From Candidatus Bathyarchaeota archaeon (GTDB lineage Archaea; Thermoproteota; Bathyarchaeia; Bathyarchaeales; Bathycorpusculaceae): 64,000 nucleotides of DNA. The DNA lies in contig CAVZIW010000006.1 in assembly GCA_963775465.1 (NCBI GenBank), positions 128,001-192,000 on the forward strand. Direction: 5' to 3'. The notes under the pieces are model-generated. The model was not told the origin of the DNA, did no database searches, and was given only the letters and a program-made list of their open reading frames with translations. Of the stretch, positions 8,371 to 9,251 are shown one piece after another (position 1 is the first letter of the stretch; each line of letters begins with the position of its first letter). The position numbers and the translations under genes are program-made.

Positions 8371-8652
8371 TTAGTCTTCTTCGTAGAGTTTTCGTTCTTT
8401 AATTTTCAGGGTGTTTTCTTCGTCAGCGATAACTTTGAAGTTTTCCGTTAGTTCATGTTTATGTAGGAACTTTTTGACTGTAATTCGAACGTATTTTTTG
8501 GCAAGTGCTGCGCCTTCGCCTTTTACGGTAACCATTTTTGAATCGGTTGTTACATCTCCGCCTGTTTTTTCCTTAAGGAAATCGGCTAACTTCTCAATTA
8601 GTTTGCGCTCTTCACCTTTTAGTTCTGAAGCATTGACTTTCATTTCAACCAT
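8371..8652 (-). CDS. rpl22e: Ribosomal protein eL22 (L22e)
   Basis: LADFLKEK...KKYVRITVKKFLHKHEL...FKVIA resembles the eL22 core; GAGGTGA SD. Confidence 0.78.
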   Translation of the reverse strand: MVEMKVNASELKGEERKLIEKLADFLKEKTGGDVTTDSKMVTVKGEGAALAKKYVRITVKKFLHKHELTENFKVIADEENTLKIKERKLYEED

Positions 8653-8739
8653 TTTTTGTTCACCTCGATTCGCGTCATTGCAAATCTCTGTTAGCTGTCT
8701 TTGTCATGACTGCTCTATTGATAAGTTTTCCGCTCTAAC

Positions 8740-8802
8740 TTGTCAGTTCGCCCGTCGAGTCTTTCTCACTGCAAAGCTCAGACTCTAGTGCTCATCATCC
8801 AA
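8740..8802 (-). ncRNA. C/D box guide sRNA, predicted to direct 2'-O-methylation of 16S rRNA C1402 (E. coli numbering)
   Basis: C box ATGATGA 8798-8792, D' CTGA 8781-8778, degenerate C' GTGAGAA, D CTGA 8746-8743; D guide CGACGGGCGAA is complementary to conserved 16S CGCCCGUC(G); terminal TTG/CAA stem. Confidence 0.8.
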
Positions 8803-9125
8803 ATCTTCAATTTACGAAGAACCATAAGTCTCTTGCGTTTTGGTAACAAATTTGTATGAGTTGACTGAAAATCGGTGCTTTCTTTAACTCGCATAATTCA
8901 TCAGAGTCATATTTTGATTTCTTGCGGTAATGTTATCTGTATAGGTGCTCTTTGCCTTTCTAGAAGTTGTTTTTATTTAGTATAACAATGTTTAAAAGGG
9001 CGATTCCCATTTTTGATTGGCTTCCGAAACAGTAGGTACATGTGCGAATCAGTTGGGCGCTGATCAGGAAGACTTGTTCTCAAGTTTCGAGAAAAAAATC
9101 ATAATAACAGGAGGAAAAGAAAAAG

Positions 9126-9251
9126 ATGTTGTCGAGAGATTGCGATGGATGCTCTCAAATGAAAACGTGCCGCAAAAGATTTGTTATCGCTGAGGTTGGC
9201 GAGAAAGTCTATTGCCCAGACGGAACAGCCCATCTAGTAGATGGAAATTAA
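9126..9251 (+). CDS. 41-aa Cys-rich micro-protein (putative zinc finger)
   Basis: MLSRDCDGCSQMKTCRKRFVIAEVGEKVYCPDGTAHLVDGN; AGGAGG SD upstream; below ORF-track cutoff. Confidence 0.65.
   Translation: MLSRDCDGCSQMKTCRKRFVIAEVGEKVYCPDGTAHLVDGN

Follow-up and report, generated by a model that had tools for sequence, protein, structure and literature searches.

Positions 8740-8802 of the 64,000-nt window (the whole stretch of DNA analysed here) carry, on the minus strand, the motifs of a box C/D sRNA with a guide facing the decoding centre of 16S rRNA. Is this an RNA gene or a chance arrangement of short motifs, which nucleotides would it address, and is it tied to the ribosomal protein gene that lies downstream of it?

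Architecture of the sRNA

Read from 8802 to 8740, boxes C, D', C' and D follow one another in order, and the sequence is exactly the C/D layout that the first-pass annotation had given. The elements are the following.

8822..8836, minus strand: BRE/TATA-like motif GCAAGAGA-CTTATGG, a putative promoter element; CTTA starts 30 nt before box C
8740..8802, minus strand: box C/D sRNA of about 63 nt, with probable ends placed by a 3-bp UUG/CAA terminal stem
8792..8798, minus strand: box C, AUGAUGA
8782..8791, minus strand: D' spacer, GCACUAGAGU
8778..8781, minus strand: box D', CUGA; in relatives CAGA, UAGA or UUGA, often 2-3 nt further along
8763..8769, minus strand: box C', GUGAGAA, degenerate; GUGAUAA in many relatives; closes a GC-capped loop with box D'
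8757..8761, minus strand: GACUC, 3' strand of a probable internal helix, within the D spacer
8747..8757, minus strand: D guide, CGACGGGCGAA, 9 bp to 16S 1364-1372
8743..8746, minus strand: box D, CUGA

The RUGAUGA-type box C, the CUGA box D, the short closing stem and a length within 50-70 nt are those of archaeal box C/D sRNAs. An internal D'/C' pair (CUGA/GUGAGAA) is present as well; the GA of box D' and the UGA of box C' are invariant in 59 of 59 aligned rows, as are G3 and C61 of the RNA. The degeneracy of box C' counts against a working guide RNA, but we consider that the locus is a real and likely functional C/D sRNA gene. It occurs as a single copy within the 64-kb window. When the window was searched with Rfam, tRNAs alone reached the gathering level, and at the sRNA locus no family came up to its cut-off. 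The best-scoring C/D families there, sR2 (22.9 bits) and sR12 (20.5 bits), were rejected; their scores are driven by the boxes.

The D guide and its predicted target in 16S rRNA

The genome has one 16S gene (G000:C4:86580-88073) and one 23S gene. Its 16S rRNA reads CGCCCGUCG at 1364-1372, and guide positions -3 to -11 form nine Watson-Crick pairs out of nine with this segment, with positions -1 and -2 unpaired. The N+5 base, G8751, stands opposite C1366, the last base of the C-G-C that is numbered 1400-1402 in E. coli and hence the equivalent of E. coli C1402, forming a G-C pair. Antisense complementarity of at least 9 nt to a stable RNA of the same genome, with a Watson-Crick pair at N+5, is thus found, and the C1366 site has the top score among all sites in 16S, 23S and the 44 tRNA calls.

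The first-pass annotation had placed the D guide on the decoding centre with its N+5 position on C1402, had proposed a check against the rRNAs of this genome and had named a 16S without the complement as a refutation. The check was run, the proposed register is exact in the organism's own 16S, with the complement present at 9/9 pairs, and the C1402 site ranks first. A duplex of 9 bp, with -1 and -2 unpaired, is near the lower length limit, and this weighs against the assignment. The D guide is nevertheless predicted to direct ribose methylation at C1366.

Chance arrangement or conserved gene

Box-like words may come together by chance in intergenic DNA with no RNA gene behind them, and several counts are compatible with such an origin. 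Shuffled versions of the guide find some 9-bp site in 16S and 23S in 4.8% of 20,000 trials. Box cassettes are no commoner in the genome than in shuffled genomes (11 against 7-17, no excess), and with looser boxes there are 34 against 27-32; all Rfam families stay below their cut-offs. Since the cassettes are not in excess over the shuffles, the case rests on the register and on conservation. The first-pass annotation held the register to be unlikely by chance. This view is borne out by a probability of about 1e-5 per cassette for one prescribed base (our own arithmetic) and by conservation measured against a reversed-pattern control.

The least biased view of this conservation comes from 30 eL22 loci of the genus, which were fetched without reference to the RNA. 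The sRNA lies within 1.5 kb of eL22 in 25 of them, as a conserved island between drifting flanks and with the upstream motif kept at a fixed distance; in two of the other five genomes the sRNA is present further from eL22. In the class, the guide and box D pattern is found in 75 of 301 genomes, compared with 7 for the reversed-pattern control, and box C lies upstream at 25 of the 28 listed loci of this search (by eye). All 34 genomes that have both the sRNA and the 3' part of 16S keep the 9-bp duplex, so that conservation of boxes and guide among relatives, on which the earlier proposal depended, is upheld. Among the 59 aligned homologues, which were selected on that motif, none departs from the common sequence at guide positions -3 to -10 or in box D. 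Judged from these sequence comparisons, the N+5 register at a known modified base, together with the conservation, excludes chance, and an origin from random box-like words is hardly credible.

The distribution across the class is patchy by the same pattern, which is a point against the guide reading: 31 of 48 genomes match in the host family, and 5/71 and 0/12 in two other families. A first, looser class pattern was set aside; its matches were dominated by chance. Outside the class, 7 of 341 genomes of the host phylum match, with a pattern that misses wobble and D'-type guides. A scan of named genomes gave at least 118 matching stretches, 80 of them titled and 30 of these archaeal. Among the matches listed, 18 of the 30 archaeal ones are titled Bathyarchaeia or Bathyarchaeota and include the closest forms, and full cassettes occur in Methanomassiliicoccales, Proteinoplasmatales, Nanoarchaeia and other Thermoproteota. 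The 50 bacterial-titled matches among those listed were judged to be chance.

In the four of ten distant archaeal genomes with a usable 16S, guide position -11 tracks 16S position 1408: it is U against A1408 in 4/4, and C against G1408 in Bathyarchaeia. The guide pattern matches 9 of 201 genomes (0 controls) in the phylum of genome G683, and eight of the nine have C-like boxes by eye; we infer this phylum to be Asgard because two of its members encode eukaryote-like actin, at 455-456 bits. A D'-type pattern gave matches in 46 of the 201 genomes of this phylum, mostly by chance; by eye, 28 of the 30 listed loci are not cassettes.

Two further cassettes were observed. L263 (G736:C2:63316-63331, minus strand) resembles L249-L251, but an additional base separates its guide from box D, and N+5 would thereby shift from C1402 to G1401. 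L144 (601-767, plus strand), in a Nitrososphaeria record, is a cassette resembling the C1402 guides and sits immediately upstream of a tRNA gene.

The D' spacer

The 3' half of the D' spacer, GAGUC (8785-8781, the first base of box D' included), complements the GACUC with which the 16-nt D spacer begins, and the two pair in the predicted fold. The folding energy is no better than that of shuffles (z 0.23). Across 59 of 65 distinct homologues, 93% of the cells of the internal helix are paired, a level reached by none of 500 shuffles. Double changes occur at two pairs, UA to CG in four rows and CG to UA in three, and probably reflect one or two events; the three outer pairs are almost invariant, and both points weigh against this reading. 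The six rows omitted from this count are L055, L095, L114, L115 and L134, which are too divergent, and L222, which is not a cassette; the genus homologues L016 and L019 were also left outside it by the filter. In the omitted row L114 the 5' strand of the helix is kept and the 3' strand lost. In genome G894 the helix is compensated inside the sRNA, with 16S helix 44 of that genome unchanged. By comparison of the homologues, then, the D' spacer is likely to pair inside the RNA with the D spacer.

A search for a conserved methylation target of the D' spacer found none; three candidate roles on rRNA deserve discussion. The strongest is that of a true double guide, in which C1402 is methylated through D, and U820 of 16S, in the helix-26 region, is methylated or held through D'. 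All 10 nt of the spacer pair with 16S 816-825 (8 Watson-Crick and 2 G-U pairs), with a Watson-Crick pair at N+5 on U820, and this is the best D' site in the organism's own genome. Of 34 genomes, 14 retain the full 10-nt match, among them 13 of the 20 in the genus (the D' columns of G085 are void in this comparison), and in G022 and G894 it improves. It is lost, however, in 7 of the 20 genus genomes while the 16S site is unchanged there, and is absent in five tested family members of other genera. Nor is its register stable: among the 13 keepers in the genus, box D' abuts the spacer in seven and sits 2 nt later in six, which moves N+5 from U820 to U818. As many as 4.1% of 3,000 shuffled spacers score as well, and the 3' half of the spacer is taken up by the internal helix. 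With a match in 14/34 genomes and a shifting N+5 position, the features expected of a double guide are lacking, and we regard this function as unlikely.

Slightly less probable still is an accessory arm that, some 20 nt away from C1402, would pair with the 5' strand of helix 44 (16S 1383-1395) and hold or open that stretch without methylating it. The core AGAGUC complements GACUCU of helix 44 in most genomes of the family, with a longer match of 8-11 nt in G036, G178 and G089. In this genome it comes to just 6 contiguous bp, the spacer does not follow rRNA changes in G892, G897 and G214, and in G894 the spacer changes without a matching change in the rRNA; moreover, the site is G/U-rich, so wobble matches are easy.

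The first-pass annotation had suggested that the D' guide could be aimed at the CUAGU flank of the 23S sarcin-ricin loop, which reads UCCCUAGUAC in this genome. A 5-nt complement to CUAGU does adjoin the loop, but the suggestion fares poorly: by hand count 7 of 10 pairs form with a longest run of 5, the site is outside the best-scoring ones, and the 5' half of the spacer varies freely among relatives. Such a target is very improbable.

Because the D' targets fail and the internal helix shows compensatory changes, the sRNA is read as a single-guide RNA with a masked D' spacer.

Relationship to the eL22 gene

Two further features lie downstream of the sRNA.

8719..8733, minus strand: a separate promoter-like motif, GCGGAAAACTTATCA, ahead of eL22, a putative promoter element
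8371..8652, minus strand: eL22-like ribosomal protein gene, 93 aa, with a GAGGUGA ribosome-binding site at 8666-8660

The gene was identified by Pfam L22e (28.5 bits against a cut-off of 23.6), and 33 of 33 PDB matches are eL22-type chains. Of 61 genomes from the genus and order, 46 have an eL22-like protein; in the available part of a 2015 review, L22e is described as eukaryote-specific, with a putative Lokiarchaeum homologue (PMC4571567).

From box D to the ATG of eL22 there are 90 nt on the same strand, in agreement with the distance of about 90 nt noted earlier. The sRNA might therefore be processed from, or co-regulated with, the eL22 mRNA, as is the case for eukaryotic snoRNAs hosted by ribosomal protein genes. 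The two genes are 86-119 nt apart on the same strand in 20 of the 30 genus loci, in two further genera or families of the order eL22 follows the sRNA at a distance of 70-812 nt, and the intervening sequence, as read, has no clear terminator. Against this, the spacing is 179-1008 nt in five of the 30 loci and above 1.5 kb, or the sRNA absent, in the remaining five. The eL22 motif is present at all five eL22 loci without an sRNA nearby, so that it stays with its gene; in G025 and G006 the sRNA is kilobases away, in G006 on the opposite strand; and homologues in other orders have no eL22 match within 1.5 kb downstream, a result that divergence could produce by hiding eL22. A regular expression locates the promoter-like motif of the sRNA at -30 to -32 in 19 of the 25 loci, and the other six have a ACAGTCTTA variant in the alignment. 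(A sigma-70 promoter scan was set aside as not applicable to archaea.)

An intergenic position, variable spacing and separate promoter-like motifs do not describe a snoRNA hosted by a ribosomal protein gene. The functional linkage proposed in the first-pass annotation is therefore not supported, with varying spacing and a conserved promoter-like motif for each unit, and its synteny with rpl22e stands in part: the 86-119-nt arrangement holds in 20/30 genus loci, and the neighbourhood, which returns loosely within the order, was not seen beyond it. The sequence comparison suggests two adjacent transcription units in loose synteny, and an origin of the sRNA from the eL22 transcript, or co-regulation with it, is improbable.

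Comparison with known C1402 methylation and guides

Methylation of this base is well documented: Cm1376 of P. abyssi corresponds to E. coli m4Cm1402, yeast Cm1639 and human Cm1703 (PMC7005279, Table 4), a review table gives the P. abyssi site as Cm1369 (PMC11542601), and Cm1402 was detected in N. equitans by RiboMeth-seq (PMC5389701). Guides have been published as well. Archaeal Cm1402 and archaeal guides for it are thus already on record, and the novelty implied by the first-pass annotation falls away; the sRNA is a bathyarchaeal example of the archaeal C1402-directed C/D guides, real but ordinary, and not new in kind. In Rfam and the literature searched, subscription papers being outside the scope, no bathyarchaeal C1402 guide was found. 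The exact guide had no match in the available parts of the supplements of Dennis 2015 and Lui 2018, a search that misleads because published guides carry a G-U wobble or mismatch, and no passage on the C1402 site was found in the available text of Breuer 2021.

Among the closest counterparts are Mka sR114, Sac sR122 and Iho sR11 (Dennis 2015, PMC4644070), C/D sRNAs detected by RNA-seq that carry the guide GAUGGGCGG and, in our reading, place N+5 on C1402 as the bathyarchaeal sRNA does. Their guide is at box D' and contains one G-U wobble, whereas the RNA described here has its guide at box D, with nine perfect pairs to 16S and a D' spacer that pairs within the RNA. For Mka sR114 and Sac sR122 the table of that paper, as available, gives no target for the GAUGGGCGG guide. 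The same paper assigns 16S C1389* to Pca sR25 and Tte sR35, whose D guides are predicted to act at alignment position 1389; since 1395 corresponds to A1408 in the numbering of that paper, this is E. coli 1402, the position predicted here. Pca sR25 has an A at N+5 (starred, a mismatch) and a second target, C1349, in contrast to the G-C pair at N+5 and the lack of a conserved second target in the bathyarchaeal RNA.

Pyrococcus sR12 (Gaspin et al. 2000, via PMC3511168) is likewise a predicted guide for the snR70-equivalent site. The bathyarchaeal sRNA scores 20.5 bits with the Rfam sR12 model RF01147, below its gathering threshold of 38; the printed consensus of RF01147 is without this guide, and a whole-genome search with the model did not recover the sRNA. 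Because of this low score and this consensus, the name sR12 may cover different RNAs.

In eukaryotes, SNORD43/U43 and yeast snR70 (clan CL00059) address the same base, human 18S Cm1703 and yeast Cm1639 (PMC7005279; PMC3511168), unlike the bathyarchaeal sRNA in that the latter is a stand-alone 63-nt archaeal gene. Archaeal sR12 is the predicted counterpart of snR70, and orthology and convergence were not separable for Hoeppner and Poole (PMC3511168). With the CL00059 models, no similarity beyond the guide was found at E up to 10, and a set of 14 homologous loci likewise gave none with E up to 1. One may imagine a single RNA lineage leading from early archaea through Bathyarchaeia, Thermoplasmatota, DPANN and some Asgard to SNORD43/snR70, with the bathyarchaeal form, whose C'/D' motif is degenerate and whose D' spacer is tied up in the internal helix, as a natural archaeal step toward the single-guide, internally paired design of eukaryotic snoRNAs; we think such a descent rather unlikely. 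The homologues collected here do offer a larger sample for the question of homology between archaeal and eukaryotic guide RNAs (sR12 versus SNORD43). With them, Bathyarchaeia gain a gene family so far missing from annotation, and nature supplies, in the self-paired D' spacer, a clean test of whether an archaeal sRNP functions when one guide is masked.

Protein partners and proposed mechanism

Among the genes of this genome, which is 92% complete, are fibrillarin, Nop5 and members of the L7Ae family. A search for RsmI (TIGR00096) found none there (the control was matched in 12 of 14), in agreement with the statement that archaea are without RsmI (PMC2831307). Bacterial RsmI places the mark predicted here on the identical base, but is a stand-alone protein acting on the assembled 30S (Kimura and Suzuki, PMC2831307).

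We propose that the sRNA would be transcribed from its own TATA-like promoter, and that its K-turn (C/D) and K-loop (C'/D') would be bound by L7Ae and then by Nop5-fibrillarin, following established C/D biology. The 3' half of the D' spacer would pair with the 5' part of the D spacer, which is 16 nt long, and the resulting helix of 5-6 bp would shorten the D guide to its customary 11 nt and deprive the D' side of a methylation target. The 11-nt guide would then bind 16S 1364-1372, and C1366 would gain a 2'-O-methyl group. In E. coli, the methyl group at 1402 has been proposed to stabilise the C3'-endo pucker and the P site's geometry (PMC2831307). RNA guidance would thus achieve what RsmI does in bacteria. 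That the D guide directs fibrillarin to 2'-O-methylate P-site C1402, in what is likely a single-guide sRNA, is a prediction that we hold with high confidence. It suggests that sediment Bathyarchaeia place Cm1402 by an RNA guide instead of RsmI, and no new mechanism is implied.

Few C/D cassettes are evident in this genome. The pre-tRNA-Trp (G000:C6:291457-291632, minus strand) has a long intron with box C/C'-like motifs by eye, presumably the expected intron-encoded C/D guide, and these motifs favour the guide reading of the sRNA. A second plausible cassette lies on the minus strand of G000:C3 at offset 26076 of the reverse complement; its D' guide matches 16S around 1024.

Three public runs match weakly, holding 0.07-0.19 of the words. 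Contigs of two RNA runs cover 9043-9250 only, with none over the sRNA, and an untyped run has a contig over 8638-8788; contigs can neither show nor exclude a 63-nt RNA.

An adjacent small open reading frame

On the plus strand at 9126-9251 there is an unannotated, cysteine-rich ORF of 41 aa with a GGAGG ribosome-binding site. All 13 aligned genus loci keep the same start, reading frame and stop, with changes mostly in third positions, and searches against NCBIfam and Atlas gave no match; it is possibly a small metal-binding protein. Two weakly paralogous stretches are found on C4. At this ORF, contigs from the two RNA runs, which belong to different studies, extend over about 9043-9215, although contigs do not prove transcription. 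Upstream of it, at about 9045-9075 on the plus strand, lies a short hairpin-like element whose arms covary among relatives in the alignment by eye.
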